DNA of 64,000 nucleotides from Actinomycetota bacterium (GCA_016870515.1 VGBL01000005.1:67373-131372); one strand, 5' to 3'; positions 5,375 through 64,000 are shown, counted from the first letter of the stretch. Made by a program: numbers and translations. The notes: generated from the sequence alone by a model not told the origin.

Positions 5375-5462
5375 GGTCACATCGTCGCGGATCGATGCTT
5401 GGCCGGCAACGCAATCAAGGCAGTTCATTCGGCTCCTAGCGTGATGGCAAACGAGCAGGGCC

Positions 5463-6069
5463 GTGCGCATCGACGGGAATGTCTTCGTGGTAACCGGAGC
5501 GGGCAGTTGCATCGGGTGAGCGTCGAAGCGCTTCCAGAGCGGGTGATTGCGCATCACGGCCGCGTGGATGGTCTTATCAACCTCGCTGGAATCATCCACA
5601 GATTCGTTCCCTTGACAAACTCGGTATGGATGAAATCGAGCGCATCATGGGCGTCAACTTCTGGGGCACCCTCTACCTCGACTTAGCCTTCCCTCCGCTG
5701 CTCAAGGATCGGCCCGAGGCCTGCCTGGTCGATGTCTCGAGCGAAGGCGCTCTCACGCCCGTGCCCGGGCAGAGCGTCTACGGGGCCAGCAAGGGAGCGG
5801 TAAAACTTCTCACCGAGGGGCTGTGAGCCGAACTGCGCGGCACCAACGTCGCCGTTACCATCGTGTTCCCGGGTGGCACCAACACCGGCATATCGGGCAA
5901 TTCAGGAGTGACTCCTCCACGTATTACCGCCGGACGGATGCCTCGCATCCTCTCGGCGGAGAGCCTGATGGTCACGCCCATGGCGATCATCGGTGCCATC
6001 GTGGGCGTGGCCATGCCAATGGCCTTCGACAAGGCCACCGGACAAGCCGGTGTCCCGATGACCCACTAG
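5463..6069 (+). pseudogene. SDR-family oxidoreductase pseudogene (frameshifts, internal deletion, in-frame TGA)
   Basis: SDR motifs are spread over three frames. VVTGAGSCIG is in frame 0 and stops at 5517. RVDGLINLAGII is in frame 2. SS...YGASK...PGGTNT is in frame 1, with TGA at 5824-5826 inside LTEGL*AELRG. Confidence 0.8.
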
Positions 6070-49816: not shown

Positions 49817-49952
49817 GTGTCGCTCCTTGGTCGTGCCCCGGAGGGCTTTGGTGTCGGCGAGACGCTACTGCACGTTGCGCCGGTCGTCACCCGAAATTCA
49901 GGTTTTGGAGCCTAGTGATCTCCCCCCAAGGAGCAACGAGGAGATCCCCGGG

Positions 49953-51149
49953 TCACAACCAGGGGTCCTGGTCGGCCTCCAGCCCCAGGTGTGGATAAAC
50001 CGCCGAGCGCGTCGCGAGGATCGCCGAGTCGACGGGGTCGGCGGGGTCGCAGCCCTGGTCGAAGGGCTTCGCCCAGGGCTGCCGTCCATCGGTCATGTGC
50101 GCCGGACCCGGCCGTCCAAGCGACTCGCTGACGTAGGTGCGAAAGGACTCGGGCGTCTGAGATTTCGCACTGATCGGATTGCCGGCCGCCTCGGCGATGA
50201 GGTGGGCCCAAGCGCGCGGCACGACGTTCACCCATTCGTATCCGCCGCCGCCGACGGCGATCCATCGACCGTCCGCGAAGCGATGCGCCCAGCGATGGAT
50301 CGCCTCATATGACATGCGCTGTCCGTCGATCGATAGCGTGAGATGCGCGAGGGGATCTTCGAAGTGGCTGTCGCAGCCGTGCTGGCTCACGATGATCTGC
50401 GGATTGAACGCTTCGAGGACGTCGGGAACGATCGCGTGAAACGCGCGCAGCCATCCCTGATCGCCGGTGCCTGCTGGAAGGGCGATGTTGACCGCCGTGC
50501 CTAGCGCCCCCGGGCCACCGACCTCGTCGGGGAAACCCGTGCCCGGGAAGAGGGTGCGCGGGTCCTCGTGGACGGAGATCGTCAGGACGCGCGGATCGTC
50601 GTAGAACATGGCCTGGACGCCGTCGCCGTGATGGACGTCGACATCGATGTAGGCGATCCGCCAGTAGCCCTGGGCGAGCAACCAGGCGATGGCGAGGCCA
50701 ATGTCGTTGTAGATGCAGAATCCGCTGGCGCGGTCAGGCATGGCATGGTGCAGGCCGCCGGCGATGTTAATGGCGTGCTGGGCCGAGCCTGACTGCACCA
50801 CGCGGGCGGCCGCGAGAGTCGCACCGCCGACCAGGGCCGAGGCCGCATGCATTCCCGCGAACACCGGGTCATCGGATGTGCCGAGACCGCGGGCTTCGTC
50901 GACGGCTCGCACGTCAAGTGATGCGCGCTCGACCGCGGCGATGTAGTCGGCGTCATGCACGCGCAGGAGGTCCTCGGCGGTCGCGGGCAAGACGGGGCTG
51001 TGCACGGAGACGCGCGGGCCAGTCAGCAGGTCGAAGTCGGTGGCCAGGCGCATGGCGAGCTGCACGCGGATAGGCGCGAGGGGGTGGCCGGGACCGAAGT
51101 CGTAGGCCTTGAGAGCGTCATCCCAGACGACGGTCAGCGAATCACTCAT
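49953..51149 (-). CDS. acetoin utilization protein AcuC / histone-deacetylase-family protein
   Basis: GGLHHAMPDRASGFCIYND and DVHHGDGVQ motifs. ATGA overlap with the proC stop. Confidence 0.88.
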   Translation of the reverse strand: MSDSLTVVWDDALKAYDFGPGHPLAPIRVQLAMRLATDFDLLTGPRVSVHSPVLPATAEDLLRVHDADYIAAVERASLDVRAVDEARGLGTSDDPVFAGMHAASALVGGATLAAARVVQSGSAQHAINIAGGLHHAMPDRASGFCIYNDIGLAIAWLLAQGYWRIAYIDVDVHHGDGVQAMFYDDPRVLTISVHEDPRTLFPGTGFPDEVGGPGALGTAVNIALPAGTGDQGWLRAFHAIVPDVLEAFNPQIIVSQHGCDSHFEDPLAHLTLSIDGQRMSYEAIHRWAHRFADGRWIAVGGGGYEWVNVVPRAWAHLIAEAAGNPISAKSQTPESFRTYVSESLGRPGPAHMTDGRQPWAKPFDQGCDPADPVDSAILATRSAVYPHLGLEADQDPWL

Positions 51150-51949
51150 GCAGGCGTGCCGCCGCCGAGTTCGACACCGCGGTCACGCGCGGCGGTCATC
51201 GCCCGCAGCACGAGGTCGCGGAAACCCCCCTCCTCGAAGGCAGCGATGGCGGCCGCTGTCGTGCCATTGGGGGAGGTGACCTGCTTGCGCAGCGTGGCGG
51301 CATCGGCGCCGGGCTGGGCGGCCATCGTTGCCGCACCCTGCACCGTCTGGGTCACGAGCGCTCGTGCCGTCTCATGGTCGAGCCCGAGGTCGCGGGCAGC
51401 GGTGATCATCGACTCGACGAGCAGGAAGACGTAAGCCGGGCCACTGCCCGAGGTCGCGGTGACGGCGTCCTGCAGCGCTTCGGGCACGCGAACCACCGGC
51501 CCGACAGCCGACAGCAGGCCCTCGACGTAGTCGGCCTGGACGGGCGTGCACGTGGAGCCCGGGGTGATCGCCGTGATGCCGCGGTCGACGAGTGCCGGGG
51601 TGTTGGGCATCGCGCGTACGGCCGCCACACCGCGGGGCAGGGCAGCTTCGAGCGTCTCGAGGCGGATGCCGGCCGCGAGGGATACGACCACCGTGCCATC
51701 GGCGAGGTGGGCGGCGATCTCATGCAGCAGCGCTGCCATGTCCTGTGGCTTGACGAGTACCAGCACGGTCGTGGCTTCGCGCACCGCTTCGGCTGCCGGC
51801 AGTGCATGCACGCCGTGCGCCTGAGCCACCTCGCGGGCGCGCTCCTCGCGCTTCTCGGAGATCACGATCCGCGCGGGCTCGGTGCCGCCGCGGATGAGCC
51901 CCGAGACGAATACCTCGCCCATGACGCCGGCGCCCAGAATGGCGATCAT
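51146..51949 (-). CDS. proC: pyrroline-5-carboxylate reductase
   Basis: N-terminal GAGVMGE Rossmann motif and the conserved C-terminal VTSPNGTTAAAI. Confidence 0.92.
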   Translation of the reverse strand: MIAILGAGVMGEVFVSGLIRGGTEPARIVISEKREERAREVAQAHGVHALPAAEAVREATTVLVLVKPQDMAALLHEIAAHLADGTVVVSLAAGIRLETLEAALPRGVAAVRAMPNTPALVDRGITAITPGSTCTPVQADYVEGLLSAVGPVVRVPEALQDAVTATSGSGPAYVFLLVESMITAARDLGLDHETARALVTQTVQGAATMAAQPGADAATLRKQVTSPNGTTAAAIAAFEEGGFRDLVLRAMTAARDRGVELGGGTPA

Positions 51950-52557
51950 GCTGCGCTCCCTGGAAGCGGAACGCGCGGATCGAGCAGCGCCTGAATCGTC
52001 GGCGCGACCAGGCGCACGACCTGCTCCTCGCTCGCTGACGCCAGCGGCTCGATGCGCATGAGATAGCGGCCCGCAGCGATGCCGACGAGAAAGGAACTGA
52101 TGAGAGCAACGCGCATGCGCGCATCCGGCACGCCCACCGCTGCGACTATCCGGTCGACCACATTCACCTCGAGATAGGCCTGCAGCGACCTGGTGACCTG
52201 CGCGGCCGACGCTCCGGCGCGGATCATGGCCATGAGGTCTTCGCGCACCTCCTGGTCGCCAACGGTGTCAAGCCAGAAGCGCACGAGCCGCTCGCCGAGC
52301 CCGTCGATGCCGGGGCCCAGCAATGATGGGATTGCCGATGCGGGATCGGTGGGCAGGCGCACGGCAGCGGCAAACATCGCACCCTTCGAGTCGTAGTACT
52401 TGCGCAGGACGGCCGGCGCGATGCCCGCCGCGGCCGCGATGCCCTTATAGGTGGTGCGGGCGTACCCCCGGGTCGCGAAGACGCTGCGGGCAGCCGCGAG
52501 AGCCGCGTCGCGGATCGGATCCGGCGTGGGCTCGGTCGCATCTGCGCTCTGGGACAT
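51946..52557 (-). CDS. TetR/AcrR family transcriptional regulator
   Basis: N-terminal HTH (ARSVFATRGYARTTYKGIAAAAGIAPAVLRKYY). ATG 52557; the track extension to 52653 was rejected. Its stop overlaps the proC start (ATGA). Confidence 0.85.
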   Translation of the reverse strand: MSQSADATEPTPDPIRDAALAAARSVFATRGYARTTYKGIAAAAGIAPAVLRKYYDSKGAMFAAAVRLPTDPASAIPSLLGPGIDGLGERLVRFWLDTVGDQEVREDLMAMIRAGASAAQVTRSLQAYLEVNVVDRIVAAVGVPDARMRVALISSFLVGIAAGRYLMRIEPLASASEEQVVRLVAPTIQALLDPRVPLPGSAA

Positions 52558-52567
52558 CGGGGTCACT

Positions 52568-53419
52568 CTAGGTGCGCAGCATCGCGGGCGGGGCGGCCAG
52601 GTGCAGCCGGGCGAAGGCCAGCGCCTCCGCGAGGTCGCGCTCTCGATCTTCACGGCTCGCAGCTCGCCGCGTGGACACCTCGACGCAGACGGTGCCGCCG
52701 AAACCGGACGCGGACAGGTGCTCGAGGAGTTCTCCGCAGGGCTGATTGCCGCGGCCAGGGATGAGGTGCTCGTCGCGATTGGAGCCGCTCCCGTCGGCCA
52801 GGTGAATGTGGCTCAGACGATCACCGAGGTCTCGCGCCATCTGGATTGCGTCAGTGCCGGACACCGATGTATGCGACAGGTCGAGGGTGGTGTGGGGATA
52901 GTCCTCGTCGCGGACGTCCCAGCCGGGCAGATAGGCGGCGATCTCGCGAGACCGCGCCTTCCAGGGATACATGTTTTCGACCGCGAAGCGCACGTGCGTC
53001 TCGTCGCCCATGCGCTCCAAGCCGCGCACGAACTCGCGGGCGTAGTCGCGCTGCCACCGGAAGGGCGGGTGGACCACCACGGTGTCGGCACCGAGGTCTT
53101 CGGCGGCTGAGCGCGCGCGCAGGAGCTTGCCCCAGGGGTCAGCGCCCCACACCCGCTGCGTGACCAGCAGGCACGGGGCGTGCACGGCCCGGATCGGCAT
53201 GGCGTAGTGATCGCGCAGGCGCTTAAGCGCGGCGGGATCCTGGCTCACGGCGTCGGTCATCACCATGACCTCGACACCGTCGTAGCCCAGGCGCGAGGCG
53301 ATCTCGAACGCCGACGCCGTGGACTCGGGGAAGACCGACGAGGTTGACAGCACCACCTGGACGCCCGGGTCGCGGCTCACGACGGCGTCGGAGTCGACGA
53401 CGAAGCGTGCCTCTGACAT
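52568..53419 (-). CDS. sugar phosphate isomerase/epimerase (xylose isomerase-like TIM barrel)
   Basis: 283 aa with the AP-endonuclease-2/TIM-barrel pattern (GYDGVEV..., HPPF, FAVENM, LDLSH, HLAD). Confidence 0.8.
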
Positions 53420-53423
53420 GGGG

Positions 53424-55811
53424 CTATTGTCTCCCGGCGCTCTCGGGGTGTCCCGGCGTGGGATGGCGGAGACGATCGGTCACGAGGGTCGCGAGCGCGA
53501 TCAGCACGGCGCCCACGAGACCCGCGACCACAGCAATGGCGGTGTCCTGCTCGGGGGCGGCGTACACCGCGAAGAAAGTCGAGAGCCACGGCACAAAGAG
53601 CACGACCAAGAAGGAGATCAGCATCGCTGCGCACACGCCGAAGCGGAGCAGATTGAGCGGCCGCGCTGACTGCACAAGCACGGCGAACGCCGCGATGAAG
53701 AGTGCGATGCATGCCCCGGAGCGGGCGTCCGCCATGGGCTCACCGGAGCGCAGGATGATTAGGTAGGCGCTCAGGCCGGCGGCGGCGCAGATGACACCGG
53801 CGGGGACGGCGAAGAGGAGCACGCGGCGCAGGAAGCCGGGGCGGAAACGCTCGGTGTTGGGCATGAGCGCCAGGAAGAACCCCGGGATGCCGATGGTGAG
53901 CGCGCTGATCAGCGTGAAATGCCGGGGCAGGAAGGGGAACTCCAGTGACTCCCCGCCATTTGACAGCGACAGCAGCACCGACAGACCGATAAAGACCGAG
54001 ATGATCGTGGCGTAGAAGGTCTTGGTCAAGAAGACATCGGCGACGCGCTCGATGTTGCCGAGCACGCGGCGGCCCTCGGCGACGACGCGCGGCATCACCG
54101 AAAACTTGTTGTCGAGCAGCACGAGCTGCGCGACGGCGCGGGTGGCCGCGGCGCCCGATCCCATGGCGATGCCGAGGTCGGCCTGCTTGAGCGCCAGCAC
54201 GTCGTTGACGCCGTCGCCGGTCATCGCCACGGTGCGCTGGCGCTTGTGCAGGGCGCCGACCATGGCCTGCTTCTGGCTCGGGGTCACGCGCCCGAAGACG
54301 GAGTTGTCGTCGATGGGGGCCACCAAGGCGTCGGGGTCGTCGGGGAGTTCGCGGGCGTCGACGGGGCTGCCTGCCCCGGGCACGCCGGCCTGCTGGGCAA
54401 TGGCCCCGACGGTCGCGGGGTTGTCTCCGGAGATGACCTTGACGTTGACATCCTGGTCGAGGAAGTACTGCACGGTCTCACGCGCGTCGGGGCGCAGGCG
54501 CTGGTCGATGACGACGAGGGCGACGGGCTGCGCCCGACCCGGCCCGTGCTCGACGTCGGGACCGTCGCCGACCGCGCGCGCGACGAGCAGCACGCGCGAG
54601 CCCGCCGATGCCAGCCGATCGGCCTGCTCGAGCACGTGTGGATCACTCGTGCCCAGGATGACCTCGGGGGCGCCCAGGAGCCAGGTGCCGTGATCGGTGA
54701 AGGTCGCCGCCGACCACTTGCGCGCACTGGAGAATGCAATTCCCTCCACCATTGACCACGTCGGGTTGGGGTAGGCCTTAGCCACGGCCTGCAGCGTCGG
54801 GTTGGGGCTCTCCTCGGAAGCGCCGAGCGCGGCGAGGATCGCTGGGACGTCGGCCGACGTGTCGAGCACCTGCACGTCGGTGACGGCCATGCCGGGCTCA
54901 GTGAGCGTGCCCGTCTTGTCGACGCAGACGGTGTCGACGCGCGCGAGCACCTCGACGGCAGGCAGGTCCTGCACGAGCACCTTGCGCTGCGCCAGGCGCA
55001 CGACGGCCACGGCCATCGCGATGCTGGTGAGCAGCACCAGGCCCTCGGGCACCATCGTGACGACGCCGGCGATGGTGCTGCTGATGGCCTCGTTGAGCGG
55101 CTGCGCGGAGCGGATCTGGGAGACGAAGAGCAGGACGCCGACCGGCGGGATCAGGAACGACGCGAGCCGGATGAACTTCGCGATGTCCTCGCGCAGCTCC
55201 GAGCGGGTCTGGGAGAACTTCTTGGCCTGCTCGGTCAGGCCTGCGGCAAAGGAGTCGCGGCCCACCCGCGTCGCGACGCAGGTGCCGGATCCGGCGACGA
55301 CGTAGGAGCCGGACATCACCTGGTCACCCACCGCCTTGTCGATGGGATCGGCCTCGCCGGTGAGCAGGCTCTCGTCGACCTCCAGTCCCTCGGCGGTGAC
55401 GACCTCGCCGTCGACGACGAGCTGGTCGCCCGGGCGCAGCACCACGAGGTCGTCGAGCACGACCTGCGAGGGACGCACCTCGATGTCTTCGCCGTCGCGG
55501 CGCAGCATGGGGCGTGCCTCGCCGATGACCGAGAGCTTCGCGAGAGCACGGCTCGCGCGCCACTCCTGAATGATGCCGATGAGCGAGTTGAAGACGATGA
55601 CGAAGCCGAAGAGGGAGTCCTGGAAGGGCGCGACGAACCACATGACGACCCACATCGACCCGATGAGGAAGTTGAACCACGTCAGGGTGTTGGCGCGGAC
55701 GATGCTGCTTAGGCTGCGGCTGTGCGGATCGGGCGCGTCGTTGGTCTGGCCGCTGGCGACTCGCTCGGCGACCTGAGCCGACGTCAGCCCCTCGACGAGC
55801 GCCAGGCTCAC
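53424..55811 (-). CDS. cation-transporting P-type ATPase
   Basis: DKTGTLTEP phosphorylation site, [13 protein letters not shown], the PEGL transmembrane motif and about 10 TMs. GTG 55811 overlaps the ppx stop (GTGA). Ion specificity unknown. Confidence 0.88.
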
Positions 55812-56746
55812 GTCTGCATCCCGTCGAGTCTGCGCAGGATGACGCCCTCGCGCAGCGCCCACGGGCCAATCTCCACCACCTCGATGCCCAGCAGGTCAAG
55901 GGTGGCCTCAGCGACGAGCGCTCCGGCGAGTAGTTGCTCGGAGCGCGCCTCGGATACGCCGGGCAGTCGTGCGCGCTCGCCCGCTGTCATAGCTGCGAGC
56001 TTAGGCACCCAGGTGCGCAGGTCATCGCGCGAGAGGGTGCGGCGCACGTAGAACCCGTCGCTCGACGGCGCAGCGCCGGTAATGCGGGCAAGCTGCCGGA
56101 ACGTCTTGGACGTCGCGACCGTGATGCGCGGCTCGCCCGCGCGCAGGATGCGGCCGACGACCTCGCCCAGAGCAGCACGCGCTTCCTTGCGGGCCGCGCG
56201 TACGGACGACTCCTTGGGCGGGTCGCCCTTGAGGAAGTGGCGCGTGACGCGTCCGGCCCCCAGCGGCAGCGAGAGCGCCACGTCGGGTTCCTCGTCGGCA
56301 CCGGAGGCGAGTTCGAGCGAGCCCCCGCCGATGTCGAGCACGAGGATGCGCCCGGCGGACCAGCCGAACCAGCGGCGCACGGCCAGGAAGGTCAGGCGGG
56401 CCTCGTCGGGGCCGCTGAGGACCTCGACGTCAAGGCCCGCGCGTTCGCGCACCGCCTGGATGACGGCGATGCCGTTGGGGGCCTCGCGGATCGCCGAGGT
56501 GGCAAACGCGAGGAACTCAGTGACCCCCAGGTCCTCGGCGCTCATCTGGGCCTGGCGGGCGAAGTCGACGAGCTCGTCGATGACCGCGTCGTCGATGCTG
56601 CCGTCGCTCTTGAGGTGCTCGGCCAGGCGGAGCGAGATCTTGGACTTCCATGCGGGCAGCGGAGCCGCGCCCTGGTGGGCGTCGACGATCAGAAGGTGAA
56701 CGGTGTTGGAACCGATGTCGAGAACGCCGAGCCGCACAGCGAGCAC
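55808..56746 (-). CDS. ppx: Ppx/GppA family exopolyphosphatase
   Basis: N-terminal [12 protein letters not shown] and DIGGGS ASKHA-fold motifs. 312 aa. Confidence 0.88.
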
Positions 56747-56777
56747 GCTACCCGTCGGTGGGGGGTAGGGTCATCAG

Positions 56778-57548
56778 GTGCCCGAAGTTTCCCTCGACTT
56801 CCCGCGTGCCTGGGTGGAGTTCGACGACCCCGGCAAGAAGGCCCGCCGCTACCGCATCGACCTCACCTGGTTGACGTCGCGCTGGACCTGCATCTTCGGC
56901 CGGGGGTGCAAGGGCATCTACAACACGATGCCCGACGCCGGGTGCTGCACCCAGGGCGCCCACTTCACCGACAAGTCCGACGAGAAGCGGGTGCTCAAAT
57001 GGGCCGAGCGGCTCACCCCCGACGACTGGCAGTTCTACGACATCGGCCGCAAGAAGGGCCCGACCGTCAAGGCCAGCGATGGCGAGCGCAAGACGCGCGT
57101 GGTGCAAGACGCATGCATCTTCCTCAACCGCCCGGGCTTCGAAGGCGGCGAGGGCTGTGCGCTGCACGGGCTAGCACTGCGCGAGGGCGTGTCCTTCGTC
57201 AAGACCAAGCCCGATGTCTGCTGGCAGTTGCCTATACGCCGCTCGTACGACGAAGTCGAGCGCCCGGACGACACGACCGTGCAGGTCGTCTCGATCACAG
57301 AGTTCGACCGTCGCGGATGGGGCCCCGGGGGCAAGAAGCTCGACTGGTACTGCAGCGGCAACACCGAGGCGCACATCGGCACCGAGCCCGTCTACATAAG
57401 CAACCGCGACGAGCTCACCGAGCTGATGGGCAAGAAGGCCTACGCCGTTCTGGTGGAGTACTGCCAGGCACATGAGGCGGCGCTGTCGAAGGCCCGCGAC
57501 CCCGCGTCGCGTCGCGCCCTCGCCGGGCACCCCGCCGACCCCGAGTAG
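56778..57548 (+). CDS. conserved Cys-rich hypothetical protein
   Basis: 256-aa intact ORF with clustered cysteines ([30 protein letters not shown]). It is divergent from ppx, as in other Actinomycetota. Function unknown. Confidence 0.65.
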
Positions 57549-57583
57549 CCCTGGGCGTCAGCCCCAGGGCCTAGCCTGCGTCC

Positions 57584-58978
57584 ATGGCCAAGGCAGCGTT
57601 GTCCTACCAGTGCAACGCCTGTGGCGCGACGTCCCTGCGCTGGGTCGGCCGCTGCCCCAAGTGCCAGGAGTTCGGCACAGTCGCCGAGATTGCCGCCGCG
57701 CCCGCGACCAAGGCGGCCAAGTCCGGCAAGGCCGTCGCCGCCGTGCGCCCCGCGCAGCCGGTCTCCGAGATCGCCGATGAGCGCGTACGCCGGCTCCCCA
57801 CGGGAGCGGGCGAGTTCGATCGCGTCGTCGGCGGCGGGCTCGTCGCCGGACAGGTGGTGCTGGTGGCGGGCGAGCCCGGCGTCGGCAAGTCGACCCTGCT
57901 GCTGGCCGTCGCACACGCCTTCACCAAGCGCAATCCCGGCACGGTCCTCTACGCCTCGGGCGAGGAGTCGGCCGACCAGATCGCGCTGCGCGCGCGGCGC
58001 ATCGGGGCGGTCTCCGAGCGCCTCCTCGTCACCGACGACAACGACCTCTTCGCCATCCTCGGCCAGGTCGACCACCATCGGCCCGGGCTCGTCATCGTCG
58101 ACTCGGTGCAGACGATCTCCAGCTCCGAGCTCGAGGGGCGGGCGGGTGGCGTCTCACAGGTGCTTGAGGTGACCCAGGTCCTCACCCGCACCGCGAAGCA
58201 GCGAGGCCTCCCGCTGCTTCTCATCGGCCAGTCCACCAAAGACAACTCCGTCGCCGGGCCGCGCGCGCTCGAGCACCTCGTCGACACCGTGCTCACCTTC
58301 GAGGGCGAGCGCACGACCGCCTTGCGACTGCTGCGCGCCGCCAAGAACCGCTACGGCCCGGCCGACGAGATCGTCGCCTTCGAGCAGACCGACACGGGCC
58401 TGGCCGAGGTCGTCGATCCATCCGAGCTCTTCCGCGGTCAGCGCGATACGCCAGTCCCTGGCACGTGCGTGACCGTGACGATGGAGGGCAGGCGCCCGCT
58501 GCTGGCGGAGATCCAGGCGCTGGTGTCACCCGATGGCGGTCCGGTGGCACGGCGCACGGTGACCGGTCTAGACACAACCCGAGTGGTGACGCTGGCGGCA
58601 GTGACGGCGCAGTCGGGTGCGGGCATGAAGGTGCTATCGCAGCGCGACATCTTCGTCGCCACGGTAGGCGGGGCGCAGATCTCCGACCCGGGAGCCGACC
58701 TTGCGGTGTGCCTCGCGATCGCGTCGGCTCAGCTCGAGACGGCGATTCCCGCCGACGTGCTGGCGATCGGCGAGATCGCGCTCTCCGGCGACGTGCGACC
58801 GGTGCCCTTCCTGGCTCAGCGCGTCGCCGAGGCACGACGACTGCGCTACAAGCGAATCCTCGTGCCCGCCGGGTCGCGTGACCGCGTCGACGGCGTCATC
58901 GAGGTGCGCCATCTCGAGGCAGGCCTGCGCGCGATCCAGGGTCACGCCGAAGCCGCGCGCCAACCCGGCTTGCGCTAA
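57584..58978 (+). CDS. radA: DNA repair protein RadA
   Basis: Zinc finger CNACG...CPKC, Walker A GEPGVGKST, the KNRYG motif and a Lon-like C-terminal domain. Confidence 0.95.
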   Translation: MAKAALSYQCNACGATSLRWVGRCPKCQEFGTVAEIAAAPATKAAKSGKAVAAVRPAQPVSEIADERVRRLPTGAGEFDRVVGGGLVAGQVVLVAGEPGVGKSTLLLAVAHAFTKRNPGTVLYASGEESADQIALRARRIGAVSERLLVTDDNDLFAILGQVDHHRPGLVIVDSVQTISSSELEGRAGGVSQVLEVTQVLTRTAKQRGLPLLLIGQSTKDNSVAGPRALEHLVDTVLTFEGERTTALRLLRAAKNRYGPADEIVAFEQTDTGLAEVVDPSELFRGQRDTPVPGTCVTVTMEGRRPLLAEIQALVSPDGGPVARRTVTGLDTTRVVTLAAVTAQSGAGMKVLSQRDIFVATVGGAQISDPGADLAVCLAIASAQLETAIPADVLAIGEIALSGDVRPVPFLAQRVAEARRLRYKRILVPAGSRDRVDGVIEVRHLEAGLRAIQGHAEAARQPGLR

Positions 58979-59092
58979 GGCGCCAGGCGCAGGACGTTGG
59001 ACTTCGCGCGGGCGCGCAGTGCCTGTCTGATATCTCGACGGTACGCCGATCCGTCGTGCCAATGGGCAGAGGCACCCGGCCAGTGTCACGTC

Positions 59093-59768
59093 ATGCGTGG
59101 ACTCGCTGTGGCCGTCATCGTTTCCGTGGCCGCATGTGTGATGGCGGGCGTGGTGTCGAGTGCGGGCGACTCGATGTGCCGATCGACTGGGCGATGCCCG
59201 ACGACCCACGCCGCGCATCCGTTGCCTTCGCCGTGCACCGCGCGACGGGGGAGCGTCGCAGCACCTACACCTTCAACCCAGGTGGCCCGGGCGGCTCCGG
59301 CGTCGGCACGCTGGGGACGTGGCTCACTGGCGCGCCCTACGGTCCCTGGGCCGCACTTCCGCCAGCGATCCTGCGGCACTACGACGTCGTCGCGTGGGAT
59401 CCGCGTGGCGTGGGCGAGAGCACTCCGTCCCTTGAGGACTGCGATGGCACCGCCGCCTACGGAGAGCTCCCGCAAGCGGGGCCGGTCGACTGGCGTGCGG
59501 TCGCGACGACGTACGCCGCCTCGATGTCTGAGGCTCTTGCCGACTGCCTCGCTGCCAAACCCAACCTGGCCCCCTACCTCGGCACGCGCTACGTCATCCG
59601 TGACCTCGATGCGCTCCGAGCGGCACTTGGAGTCGAGCGATGGACCTACCACGACGTGAGCTATGGCACGACCGTCGGCTTGGCTTACGCGCGGCAGTAT
59701 CCCGATCGGGTGCGTGCGCTCGTCTTCGACGGTGTGGCCACGACCAACCAGACGCAGTTGCAGCAGGC
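59093..59768 (+). pseudogene. secreted alpha/beta hydrolase (tripeptidyl-aminopeptidase-like) remnant
   Basis: The signal/lipoprotein peptide MRGLAVAVIVSVAACVMAG is in one frame. The body is in another (ECGRLDVPIDW, FNPGGPGGSG, WDPRGVGES, DVSYGT, FDGV). The C-terminal half is absent, and past about 59770 the frame reads Ser/Arg-rich nonsense. Confidence 0.7.
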
Positions 59769-60263
59769 GTCGACGATATTGCCCGCGAGATCGAGGGCTA
59801 TGTCATCGAACTCGGCAGCGATGGTCGACTCGTGGCACTCCAGCTCGAGGAGCTCGTCGCGGGTATCGACAAGGAGCGCGTACTGGTGCTTCGTGACTAC
59901 GTCTCAACGTGCGGGCAGCGCCAGCGCAAGGTCGACCGGGCGATCCAGCAGCTCGACGCGTTGACCGGTAGTGACCTACTCGACCTGGACAGCGTCGCAC
60001 GCGTCATCGGCTTTGCTACCGGCGAGGACTTCCACGAGCAGTCGGCAAGCCCCCGCGGCTACCGGATGCTTGCGCACATTCCCCGACTTCCCGAAACGAT
60101 CATGGACCGCCTCGTGGTGACGTTCGGCTCGCTGCAGCGGCTGCTGTGCGCCAATCTCGAGGACCTTCAGGCGGTGGAGGGTGTCGGCGAATCCCGGGTG
60201 CGCTCCGTGCGCGATGGCCTCTCTCGCCTCGCAGAGAGCGGCGTCCTCGACCGTCACGTCTAG
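59769..60263 (+). pseudogene. disA: disA remnant: linker and helix-hairpin-helix part only, diadenylate cyclase domain missing
   Basis: DDIAREIEGYVIELGSDGRLVALQLEELVAG...LEDLQAVEGVGESRVRSVRDGLSRLAESGVLDRHV matches the C-terminal roughly 45% of DisA. No DGA or RHRSA cyclase motifs appear in any frame between radA and this point. Confidence 0.75.
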
Positions 60264-60267
60264 TCGA

Positions 60268-60903
60268 CTACTCCAGGCGCAGGGCGCTGGGGGCGCTTGT
60301 GATCTCCCCGTTGCGCCCGATCACGGTGTACTCGCCGGCCTCGGCCATGGGCATGTCGGCCGGGCAGCCCGCCTCCGATAGGTAACCATCCCAGGCCAAC
60401 TGGGTCTCGAAGGCCTCGCCGCGGTCGAGGGTGATGATGTCCTCTTCGTCGCTGGGATTGCAGTCGTCGCTCGACCACACCCGCGAGTCGCCTGAGGTGA
60501 TCTGCAGCTCATTGGCACCGGGCCCGGTGTCGCGCTTACACGCAACCATGCCGATGTTGGTGACCATCAGCGTGAGGGTCGGCGTGGATCCGACCGGGTA
60601 GATCGCCTCCTCGGCACTGGCCTCGACGAGGATGCTCTCTTCAAGGCATGCCACCGGCTTGGTGTCGGTGGGCGAGGGCGACGGCGATGTCGGCTCAGGA
60701 TCAGGGGTGGGCGAGGCGCTCTCGGAGGCCGGCGCAGGGGTCGAAGTGGGCTCGGGCCCGGCGTCTCCCCCGCCGCTGGAGCGCCCGAAGATGAGCCACC
60801 ACAACAGGATGAGAATGAGCAGGAGGACGACGATCACGATGATGCGCCGGCGCCAGTAGACGCCGGGCGGCTCGGGCCCCGTCGGCCAGATCACCGTGCT
60901 CAC
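60268..60903 (-). CDS. membrane-anchored protein with Pro/Ser/Thr-rich linker
   Basis: N-terminal TM (IIVIVVLLLILILLWWLIF), a PT-rich spacer, then a Cys-containing extracytoplasmic domain. It occupies the conserved position after disA. Confidence 0.7.
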   Translation of the reverse strand: MSTVIWPTGPEPPGVYWRRRIIVIVVLLLILILLWWLIFGRSSGGGDAGPEPTSTPAPASESASPTPDPEPTSPSPSPTDTKPVACLEESILVEASAEEAIYPVGSTPTLTLMVTNIGMVACKRDTGPGANELQITSGDSRVWSSDDCNPSDEEDIITLDRGEAFETQLAWDGYLSEAGCPADMPMAEAGEYTVIGRNGEITSAPSALRLE

Positions 60904-60936
60904 GGGTCAGCACGCTACCCGCTCCCCCCGGGGGCC

Positions 60937-61875
60937 ATGCCACCATCGGCTCCGATGCCTGGTGGAAATGACCCCGGTCATGGGGGTCCGCATAGCCCCG
61001 CCCTGGTCGGGTGGTTCGCCCGGGTGGGGCGGCCCCTTCCCTGGCGGTGCCCTGCGCGCCCTGGCCCCGGCCCGCACGGCTGGGGGGTGCTGGTGTCGGA
61101 ATTCATGCTCCAGCAGACGCCGGTCGATCGCGTCATCCCGGCCTGGACCGCCTGGCTCGAGCGCTGGCCGCAGCCGGCGGACCTTGCCGCCGACTCACCG
61201 GCCGAGGCCATCCGTGCGTGGGGTCGGCTCGGCTATCCACGGCGAGCGAAGCGACTGCACGAGTCAGCCGTCGTTATCGTTGACCGCCACGGGGGTCTGG
61301 TGCCCGATCAGCACGACCAATTGTTGGCCCTCCCTGGTGTCGGTGACTACACCGCCGGCGCCGTCCGCGCATTCGCCTACGGCCACGCAGCCTTGGCGCT
61401 TGACACGAACGTGCGCCGAGTGCTCGCCCGCCACGACCTGGGTGTGCCCGATGCCACAGGATCGGTAAGTGTCGCGGAGCGACGTCGCGCCGCCGAACTC
61501 ATGCCGTCGGATCCTGCCGACGGGTCAGCCTGGATGGCGGCAGTCATGGAGCTCGGCGCCCTCGTCTGCACGAGCCGGGCTCCCCGCTGCGAGGCGTGCC
61601 CGGTCTCCAGTGACTGTGCCTGGCTCGCGCGCGGACGACCCGACGGCATGGCCAAGCGGCGCCAGCCGGCGTACGACGGCTCCGATCGCCAGGCCCGCGG
61701 CGCGCTGCTCGCCGTGCTGAGGGAGAGCAAGGCACCGGTGAGCCAGGGTGCGCTCGACCTCGCCTGGCCCGATGCCACCCAGCGAGCCCGGGCCCTCGAC
61801 GGGCTCGTAGCCGACGGACTCGTCGTCCCGGCACCTCACAACCGCTGGTCCCTGCCCGACCAGCGCATTGGCTAG
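60937..61875 (+). CDS. mutY: A/G-specific adenine DNA glycosylase (MutY family)
   Basis: HhH-GPD core (VSEFMLQQT, LPGVGDYTAGAV) and the Fe-S loop CTSRAPRCEACPVSSDC. The start could be ATG 60937 or 60955. Confidence 0.85.
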   Translation: MPPSAPMPGGNDPGHGGPHSPALVGWFARVGRPLPWRCPARPGPGPHGWGVLVSEFMLQQTPVDRVIPAWTAWLERWPQPADLAADSPAEAIRAWGRLGYPRRAKRLHESAVVIVDRHGGLVPDQHDQLLALPGVGDYTAGAVRAFAYGHAALALDTNVRRVLARHDLGVPDATGSVSVAERRRAAELMPSDPADGSAWMAAVMELGALVCTSRAPRCEACPVSSDCAWLARGRPDGMAKRRQPAYDGSDRQARGALLAVLRESKAPVSQGALDLAWPDATQRARALDGLVADGLVVPAPHNRWSLPDQRIG

Positions 61876-62357
61876 GGGATGACGATGGTCTCGTTGACGA
61901 GGGGGACGCGGTCAGACACGCGCACGGCGGTGCGCTCGCCCATGGGAAGATCGAGCGTCGCATCGACCCACGTGCGGTCACCGGCAATGCCGATGCCCGC
62001 GCACTCCTCAGCGCCGCGCGGAGCTGCCCGCACCGCTGACACCTCGATGACATTGGGACGCTCGATGATGCGCACCAGGACTTCATCGCCCGTGCAGAGC
62101 CCCGACTCGGGCAGGGCTACCGCAACCTGGATGACCCGTGGATCGAGCGTGGTGCGCCACGCAACGGCGTTGAGCGGCGTCTCGGCGGTGCCCAGCGCAC
62201 GTAGGGGGCCGATACCGGCGACCAACCCACCGGCCACGACGAGGGCGACGATGACCGCGATGCCGCCGAGCAGCCATGCCCAGAACGCCGGCGTGCGCCT
62301 CTTGCGGCGCGGCGCGTCGTACTCGCGCAGACCGGGGATCAGCGGATCACGCGGCAT
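61872..62357 (-). CDS. hypothetical membrane-anchored protein
   Basis: 161-aa ORF with one TM (FWAWLLGGIAVIVALVVAGGLVAG) followed by a small extracytoplasmic domain. No family recognised. Confidence 0.55.
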   Translation of the reverse strand: MPRDPLIPGLREYDAPRRKRRTPAFWAWLLGGIAVIVALVVAGGLVAGIGPLRALGTAETPLNAVAWRTTLDPRVIQVAVALPESGLCTGDEVLVRIIERPNVIEVSAVRAAPRGAEECAGIGIAGDRTWVDATLDLPMGERTAVRVSDRVPLVNETIVIP

Positions 62358-62369
62358 GCGAGAGCCCGA

Positions 62370-64000
62370 TCAGTCGGTGCCAGCGGTTTCGACGGGAGGC
62401 AGGTCGGGTACGTCGGCCCGAGGGTTGGACGTGAAGGTCAATTCCTTGGTGCCGTCGTCGGCCGTGGAGACATCGACCAGCACGATCGAACCGGGCTGAA
62501 TTTCACCGAAGAGCATCTTCTCGCTCAGCGGATCCTCGATCTCGCGCTGGATCGTGCGGCGCAGCGGACGCGCACCCATCGACGAGTCGTAGCCGCGCTC
62601 GGCGAGGAGCTCGCGCGCGCTCTGGGTGAGATCGAGGGAGATGTCGCGGTCCTTGAGCCGCTCGTCGAGGTGATTGATCATCAGGTCGACGATCGAGACG
62701 ATCTCGGTCTTGCTGAGCTGGTGGAAGACGATGACGTCGTCGATGCGGTTGAGGAACTCCGGGCGGAAGTGCTGCTTAAGCTCCTGCTGCACCTTGGTCT
62801 TCATACGCTCGTAGGCACTCAGGTCGTCGTTCTCGGGGGCGAAGCCCATCATGACGCCCTTCGACACGTCGCGGCTGCCGAGGTTGGTCGTCATGATGAT
62901 GACGGTGTTCTTGAAGTCCACGACCCGGCCCTGGGCGTCGGTGAGACGACCCTCCTCGAGCACCTGCAGCAGCGAGTTGAAGATGTCGGGGTGGGCCTTC
63001 TCCACCTCGTCGAAGAGCACCACAGAGAACGGCTTGCGGCGCACCTTCTCGGTGAGCTGGCCGCCCTCTTCGTAGCCAACGTAGCCGGGGGGCGAGCCGA
63101 AGAGGCGCGACGCCGTGTGCTTCTCGGAGTACTCGCTCATGTCGAGGGCGATCAGAGCATCGTCGTCGCCGAAGAGGAATTCGGCGAGCGTCTTCGACAG
63201 CTCGGTCTTGCCGACCCCGGAGGGCCCCGCGAAGATGAAAGAACCCGACGGACGCTTGGGATCCTTCAGACCGGCGCGTGTGCGGCGAATTGACCTCGAC
63301 AGTGCCTTGATGGCCTGGTCCTGACCGATGACGCGACGGTGCAGCTCCTCCTCCATGCGGATGAGGCGCTGGGCGTCGTCCTCGGACAGGTCGGTGACCG
63401 GGATGCCGGTCATGAGGGCCAGCACCTCGGCGATGAGGCGCTCGTCGACCTCGGCGACGACGTCCATGTCGCCGGACTTCCACTCGCGTTCACGCTGGGT
63501 CTTGTCGGCAAGCAGGTTCTTCTCGTCGTCGCGCAGGCGCGCAGCGAGCTCGAAGTCTTGGGAGTCGATCGCCGACTCCTTCTCACGGCGCACGTCGGCG
63601 ATGCGCTCGTCGAATTCGCGCAGGTCCGGCGGAGCGGTCATGCGGCGGATGCGCAGGCGCGAACCGGCCTCGTCGATGAGGTCGATGGCCTTGTCCGGGA
63701 GCTGGCGATCGGAGATGTAGCGGTCGGACAGCCGAGCGGCCGCAGCGAGCGCTCCGTCAGTGATCGACACGCGGTGGTGCGACTCGTAGCGGTCGCGTAG
63801 GCCCTTGAGGATCTCGACGGTGTCGGAGACATCGGGCGCCTGCACCTGGATGGGTGCGAAGCGGCGCTCGAGCGCGGCGTCCTTCTCGACGTACTTGCGG
63901 TATTCGTCGAGCGTGGTCGCGCCGATCGTCTGGAGCTCACCGCGGGCGAGCATCGGCTTGAGGATGCTCGCGGCATCGATCGCGCCCTCGGCGGCACCGG
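62370..64000 (-). CDS. clpC: ATP-dependent Clp protease ATP-binding subunit ClpC, C-terminal about 540 aa (5' end beyond window)
   Basis: UVR-like middle region, second AAA+ module with Walker [10 protein letters not shown], and the ClpB_D2-small C-terminus. The reading frame stays open to the window end. Confidence 0.92.

Follow-up and report, generated by a model that had tools for sequence, protein, structure and literature searches.

A disA remnant without its cyclase domain, joined out of frame to a hydrolase fragment behind radA in a freshwater actinobacterial lineage

Here, we show that a stretch of 64,000 nucleotides (hereafter the window) from an actinobacterium retains, behind an intact radA, no more of disA than its last 161 codons, which are fused out of frame with part of an unrelated hydrolase gene. 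The ancestor shared with the closest relative in our comparison (L001) had an intact 361-codon disA behind radA, and the lineage of the window has since lost the radA-disA spacer, the disA start and codons 1-200, i.e., the whole cyclase (DAC) domain and the first third of the linker. The inactivation dates to after the split from this relative, to which the radA of the window is 93% identical, and the truncated allele has reached fixation in the Lake Tanganyika population as sampled. The two pieces are very probably both pseudogene remnants, so that 59008-60263 would be non-functional debris. The locus adds one more, ordinary case of a decaying pseudogene to a type of event known from other actinobacteria, and should be annotated as a pseudogene.

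Layout of the radA-disA locus

Judged by its closest relatives, the window belongs to the order 'Candidatus Nanopelagicales', freshwater actinobacteria, and its G+C content is 67.8%. The features around the fusion are as follows.

57584-58978, plus strand: radA, intact, 464 aa (TIGR00416, E=1.5e-133; dN/dS against L001 0.056)
58975-59007, minus strand: remnant of a surface-protein gene, last 10 codons (AKSNVLRLAP) and stop, the stop overlapping the radA stop (read directly from the sequence)
59008-59151, plus strand: about 143 bp without detectable nucleotide homology, holding a signal-peptide-like ORF start at 59093 (MRGLAVAVIVSVAAC...)
59152-59777, plus strand: interior of a gene for a secreted S33 alpha/beta hydrolase, spanning roughly codons 47-255 of some 500 (Pfam Abhydrolase_1)
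59640-60263, plus strand: 207-aa ORF that reads through 46 codons of hydrolase DNA out of frame and then into the disA remnant; annotated as a gene in metagenomes
59777-59778, plus strand: junction at which hydrolase DNA runs out of frame into disA codon 201 (three-way comparison of the window, L091 and L001)
59778-60263, plus strand: disA remnant, codons 201-361 and stop, comprising the C-terminal part of the linker and the HhH region (90.7% aa identity to the intact disA of L001)
60154, plus strand: A/G polymorphism, Asn/Ser at remnant residue 126
60268-60903, minus strand: convergent downstream gene, 208-211 aa, no Pfam family matched, directly abutting radA in relatives without disA

The disA remnant is in the orthologous position, downstream of radA and on the same strand, and aligns to residues 212-370 of the 383-residue DisA chain of PDB 7y0d. 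Against the ORF at 59640-60263, the DisA equivalog PRK13482 matched at profile positions 196-356 of 357 only (172.6 bits, cut-off 201 bits), and the DisA-linker family (PF10635, Pfam) at positions 56-138 of 142 only, so the linker is incomplete. The HhH domain is present, with HHH_2/HHH scores of 24.9 and 20.6 bits, just below the Pfam cut-offs. These results confirm an earlier reading made from the sequence alone (the sequence-only reading), according to which only the C-terminal part of disA survives after radA; the start that it gave for the surviving part (59769) and the frame switch that it placed at about 59755-59775 lie within 10 bp of the junction at 59777/59778. The residues DD that precede IAREIEG are hydrolase DNA read in the disA frame. 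Likewise, neither DGA nor RH[RS][ST]A was found in the six frames of 58979-59780, in agreement with the absence of cyclase motifs claimed for 58979-59770. In the six-frame translation of the whole 64-kb window, an HMM built from the DAC domains (PF02457) of 13 relatives found no DAC domain (best E=1.1). An Rfam scan of the window returned three tRNAs only and no ydaO/c-di-AMP riboswitch, and a promoter and terminator scan of 58700-60500 found nothing, sigma-70-like promoters included.

Upstream of the remnant, and in another frame, the sequence-only reading had recognized the N-terminal half of a secreted alpha/beta hydrolase. The frame 59056-59964 indeed matches Abhydrolase_1 (Pfam) at profile positions 5-115 of 245 (E=4.8e-17) and retains ECGRLDVPIDW as well as the N-terminal alpha/beta core with the oxyanion-hole region (NPGGPGGSG). 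Both motifs are shared with secreted S33 alpha/beta hydrolases of the tripeptidyl-aminopeptidase-like kind (P0001/L091, L107, L110), and the closest homologues are 78-82% identical over about 205 residues, with 80-82% for the best protein matches. At the nucleotide level, the fragment is 74-81% identical to L091, L094 and L106-L110, and 85% identical to L112 over the 134 bp covered; blastn was informative for L091 and the window, whereas tblastx of the same pair yielded only noise. While intact homologues measure 503-515 codons from stop to stop and combine Abhydrolase_1 with a C-terminal Abhydrolase_4 (PF08386), the window holds only about half a gene, without some 245 C-terminal codons including the Abhydrolase_4 region. 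The eight homologues all start to match at 59152-59155, where the contig reaches that far, and all stop at 59777, which bears out the claimed absence of the C-terminal half. In S33 hydrolases, this half supplies the catalytic Asp and His. The nucleophile elbow is also degenerate, reading DVSYG rather than GxSxG, with the first Gly replaced (GVSYG, GASYG or GWSYG in homologues). Among the homologues themselves, that of L091 (10001-11530) is split into ORFs of 296 and 184 aa, that of L094 (721-1535) is frameshifted, and in L095 (176-1042) the first ~104 hydrolase codons continue in frame into the C-terminal portion of a prenyltransferase of the UbiA/CtaB type; these three disruptions may reflect real decay or assembly error. 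The homologues in L107 and L110 appear intact.

As the sequence-only reading had also stated, the signal peptide of the hydrolase lies in a different frame from the body of the gene: a signal-like start of lipoprotein type at 59093 (MRGLAVAVIVSVAACVMAGVV) is out of frame with ECGRLDV at 59158. Six such starts occur in the six frames of 64 kb, which gives an expectation of 0.007 in 143 bp by chance. The segment that holds it (59008-59151) gave no significant nucleotide alignment to the 5' regions of disA, to those of the hydrolases or to anything else fetched. Strain L111 differs here by five SNPs and one 2-bp indel, whereas 3.7 kb of flanking genes contain 16 SNPs. Hydrolase homologues have a conserved segment, ITWVDCPSYLP, before VECGRLDV, and this segment is missing in the window. 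The stretch 59008-59151 probably represents the hydrolase's own 5' end, now diverged and split off by an out-of-frame internal deletion that removed the ITWVDCPSYLP segment. A diverged disA promoter and 5' end, to which 59009-59157 looks similar by eye, was considered and rejected, as local alignment against 13 relatives scored no better than shuffled sequences.

Breakpoints and origin of the fusion

A RadA scan with one genome per species gave 27 related loci. The closest relative, L001, has a RadA that is 97% identical at the amino acid level (93% at the nucleotide level), directly followed by an intact disA (361 codons, 361 aa) with DGA and TRHSTA motifs. Homology between the window and L001 covers 57584-59008, is interrupted, and resumes at 59778: about 650 bp of L001 (the spacer and disA codons 1-200) are replaced in the window by about 770 bp of other sequence. 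On the left side, homology to L001, L003, L004, L008 and L019 ends at about 59007-59009. On the right side, the junction at 59777/59778 is out of frame and shows no clear microhomology when the window, L091 and L001 are compared.

The hydrolase gene has no counterpart at this place in the relatives. It is absent between radA and disA in all 13 relatives with an intact disA, and neither radA nor disA was found near a hydrolase homologue at any of eight loci within the 1-10 kb of flank fetched, short metagenomic contigs bounding this evidence from synteny. Searches of the rest of the window and of 80 radA loci did not return the hydrolase, and a collection of 5.8 billion proteins held no copy more than 82% identical to the fragment. 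A pattern scan of JGI metagenome contigs recovered the hydrolase sequence of this population at the radA-disA locus only (L111). The fragment and the disA remnant have similar GC3 values (0.81 and 0.80). A single deletion between ancestral neighbours is thus insufficient, because no relative pairs the hydrolase with radA or disA, and the replacement of about 650 bp by about 770 bp requires at least one earlier insertion or translocation. Of the single deletion joining two genes that the sequence-only reading proposed, the out-of-frame junction, the loss of the DAC domain and the truncated, decayed state of the hydrolase hold; the single deletion is not supported as stated, since the hydrolase adjoins radA or disA in no relative and carries additional lesions, and a replacement or insertion is needed as well.

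We moderately favour an insertion followed by a deletion over a one-step replacement; both are reconstructed histories. A hydrolase gene would first have come to lie in the flexible spacer between radA and disA, and a deletion from mid-hydrolase to mid-disA would then have fused the two genes. A one-step replacement is a serious competitor that we judge somewhat less probable. Here, a break in the 5' part of disA would have been repaired by illegitimate recombination or end joining, with a piece of hydrolase DNA as filler, captured either from another place in the genome or from DNA that the cell had taken up, so that about 650 bp were lost, about 770 bp gained and disA was killed all the same. 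The sharp limits of the block that differs between L001 and the window, the lack of a hydrolase near radA or disA in any relative and the junction without microhomology are all in line with such a repair, as is the use of the same spacer as the crossover point of a radA allele replacement (see below). It is countered by the lack of a source copy of the hydrolase in the population, the best homologue elsewhere being 82% identical, and by the piece itself, which appears to include its own start and signal peptide in addition to a separate internal lesion, features that suit a once-complete resident gene better than random filler.

The radA-disA spacer is a variable site in this clade, because L003, L004, L008, L016, L017 and L019 carry a surface-protein gene, or what remains of it, after radA. 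This gene is intact in L016 and L019, apparently also in L004 and L017 (from reading the sequence only), and partly decayed in L008 and L003. Where present in full, it encodes 570-719+ aa (L016 2556-4715, L019 11365-13077) and is convergent to radA in some relatives; the contigs that carry the full gene all end inside it.

An 18-nt direct repeat, 89% identical between its copies at 58983-59000 and 60273-60290, flanks the remnants on both sides. Each copy is the 3' end of a minus-strand gene, and both genes terminate in LRL(x)(P/E) before the stop. We considered this repeat as a substrate of clean disA deletions and rejected it: relatives without disA carry an unhybridized C-terminus of the downstream gene, and a repeat-mediated deletion is therefore without support.

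The genes around the fusion differ in their affinities. The RadA of the window is only 77% identical to that of L019 and 90-95% identical to those of L002, L022 and L008, whereas the seven genes upstream of radA are closest to L019 (87-95% aa identity) and the flanks are of the L019/L026 type. The disA remnant groups with DisA of the L018/L026 type, and for the gene that follows, L026 is the nearest genome after L001. The alleles change over at about 57.45-57.6 kb, and L001 shares the pattern (radA at 57450-59010 against 49900-57450 and 59778-62400). Such a mosaic suggests that radA was replaced by homologous recombination and that one of the crossovers fell in the spacer between radA and disA.

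Decay of the remnant and its spread in the population

We estimated dN/dS by the Nei-Gojobori method, on small counts. Over its 161 codons, the disA remnant differs from L001 by 16 nonsynonymous and 12 synonymous changes (dN/dS 0.455), whereas radA differs by 12.5 and 75.5, respectively (dN/dS 0.056), a significant difference in the nonsynonymous to synonymous ratio (Fisher p=1.3e-5). In intact disA, the same 161 codons gave an omega of 0.015-0.20 across seven pairs of relatives. Polarization with 12 outgroups placed ten amino-acid changes on the branch of the window and three on that of L001, with two ambiguous (p=0.09, two-sided); dN/dS on the window branch is approximately 0.7, with counts apportioned by hand. 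Changes on this branch include L86H and A141V at columns that are invariant elsewhere, Y160H at a column invariant bar one sequence, and K115T and S126N at well-conserved columns. Judged by these substitutions, the remnant has drifted almost neutrally under relaxed selection. Its 161 codons contain no stop and no indel. As only 2.6% of point substitutions would create a stop, with a probability of 0.6-0.8 that the frame stays open after 10-20 substitutions, this lack of stops is uninformative.

The 207-aa ORF at 59640-60263 might nevertheless be expressed as a cyclase-less HhH protein that binds DNA, e.g., branched DNA, or RadA. Its frame is open, a GGAG lies 7 nt upstream of the ATG as a plausible Shine-Dalgarno sequence, the HhH region is still recognizable, and the ORF is kept in 35 contigs. 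We consider such a function very unlikely. A dN/dS of about 0.46, with changes at invariant HhH and linker positions, speaks against it, and the ORF opens with 46 nonsense residues and enters the linker domain only midway, with no sigma-70-like promoter in 58700-60500. Moreover, its conservation among contigs reflects a near-clonal population (99.8-100% identity) and not selection, and the 'DAC-less DisA' proteins in databases are frameshifted genes or contig-end fragments rather than a family. The 207-aa 'gene' listed in public metagenome annotations almost certainly encodes no real protein, and a pair of pseudogene remnants joined out of frame is the reading that we retain.

A natural family of cyclase-less DisA was rejected on the same database proteins. 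P0194 and P0223 derive from full disA genes broken by frameshifts, with all DAC segments present, on long, generically named contigs that are possibly long-read assemblies; most other short DisA matches sit on contigs of 1-4 kb and are probably cut at contig ends. The proteins of 231-232 aa publicly annotated as 'DisA-linker only' at L092 (3553-4696) and L093 (3490-4699) are full disA genes broken by frameshifts. Such frameshifted disA on long contigs calls for caution in counting truncated DisA in databases.

A second pseudogene lies elsewhere in the window, at about 5440-6060 on the plus strand, where a short-chain dehydrogenase (GNVFVVTGAGSCIG ... YGASKGAVKLLTEGL) is spread over three frames with an in-frame stop. 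Its state suggests ongoing gene decay in this genome.

The lesion recurs across separately assembled data. Ten contigs are 100% identical to the window over 58900-60300, and ten more differ only at 60154, the sole polymorphism within the remnants across the 20 contigs. Their sources are 12 of the 24 metagenomes, each assembled separately, that Tran et al. 2021 described from Lake Tanganyika (IMG identifiers confirmed; PMC8245535), seven Logan run assemblies and one ENA assembly. All 20 share both junctions, and a 21st contig (L111), from another JGI metagenome and 99.4% identical, shares the left side. At the protein level, the exact 207-aa product was found on 19 contigs and a one-residue variant (P0121) on 16, and the collection of 5.8 billion proteins held no intact allele with a near-identical C-terminus, the next match being at most 64% identical. 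Because remnant residue 126 is Ser (or Thr) in all relatives, at a conserved serine column, Asn is the derived, nonsynonymous variant.

That the contig is a chimera or a binning artefact of a genome with an intact disA, a concern for a metagenomic sequence whose closest relative L001 has the gene intact, is practically excluded by the 20 concordant contigs from 12 separate JGI, seven Logan and one ENA assemblies, by the 0.6%-divergent strain L111, which shares the left side in a different JGI metagenome, and by the protein database, which contains no intact allele nearly identical at the C-terminus. The lesion is thus genuine, and mis-assembly, which the sequence-only reading had named as one result that would overturn it, does not account for it. 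Another contig from this population (L086) matches the window exactly up to about 62950 and then shows 104 mostly third-position differences in a ClpC-like gene; this difference over 62950-64000 suggests a recombined segment or a strain boundary.

Loss of disA, c-di-AMP and known systems

Other relatives have lost disA outright. Seven (L009, L010, L012, L013, L014, L015 and L025) show no trace of it at the locus, where the downstream gene's stop lies within about 5-70 bp of radA. In a RadA tree (simple neighbour-joining, as for all trees here), the window is sister to L001, with its intact disA, and the disA-less genomes form the groups L014/L015, L009/L010/L012/L013 and L025, i.e., at least two to three independent clean losses at the locus. 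The absence or truncation of disA has already been reported in Mycobacteriaceae. Hence, the statement in the sequence-only reading that such a loss is unusual for a free-living actinobacterium was overstated, given seven related freshwater genomes without disA at the locus and the precedents in Mycobacteriaceae.

In many Gram-positive bacteria, c-di-AMP is essential or near-essential. The truncation would abolish DisA-dependent c-di-AMP synthesis and DNA-integrity scanning, and if DisA was the sole cyclase, as it usually is in Actinobacteria, the organism would make no c-di-AMP. Actinobacteria are reported to have cyclases of the DisA type only, and disA of Corynebacterium glutamicum proved impossible to delete (PMC9960051). 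We found no link between c-di-AMP and Nanopelagicales in the literature searched. With clean losses in at least two to three lineages and the window caught in mid-decay, this high-GC freshwater clade is possibly abandoning c-di-AMP signalling altogether, a proposal that we put forward tentatively and regard as rather less than probable. If it is true and DisA was the sole cyclase, these free-living planktonic actinobacteria would get by without any c-di-AMP. Speculatively, the need for c-di-AMP to control potassium and osmolyte balance may be lower in a lake that is dilute and osmotically stable. The locus offers a case in which disA of a free-living lake bacterium was inactivated at a datable point and the inactive allele became fixed in the population, beside relatives with outright deletion. 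Since intact, truncated and absent disA coexist in one clade, these genomes form a natural comparison set for the dispensability of c-di-AMP outside host-restricted pathogens.

With the canonical actinobacterial radA-disA operon, such as Rv3585-Rv3586 of Mycobacterium tuberculosis, the window shares gene order and strand, and its remnant is orthologous to the linker and HhH part. Another canonical radA-disA operon is radA-cg2951 of C. glutamicum (PMC9960051). In contrast to these, the window has no DAC domain, no promoter-proximal spacer, no start codon and no first third of the linker, and, unlike canonical DisA, its remnant scores under the NCBIfam family cut-off.

The closest parallel is the loss or truncation of disA in Mycobacteriaceae, likewise a lineage-specific loss of a DisA-type gene at or near the radA locus, in genomes with other pseudogenes. 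However, the host of the window belongs to a free-living planktonic freshwater lineage and is not a host-restricted pathogen. Furthermore, the remnant described here is fused to an unrelated hydrolase fragment, and the event postdates the split from L001.
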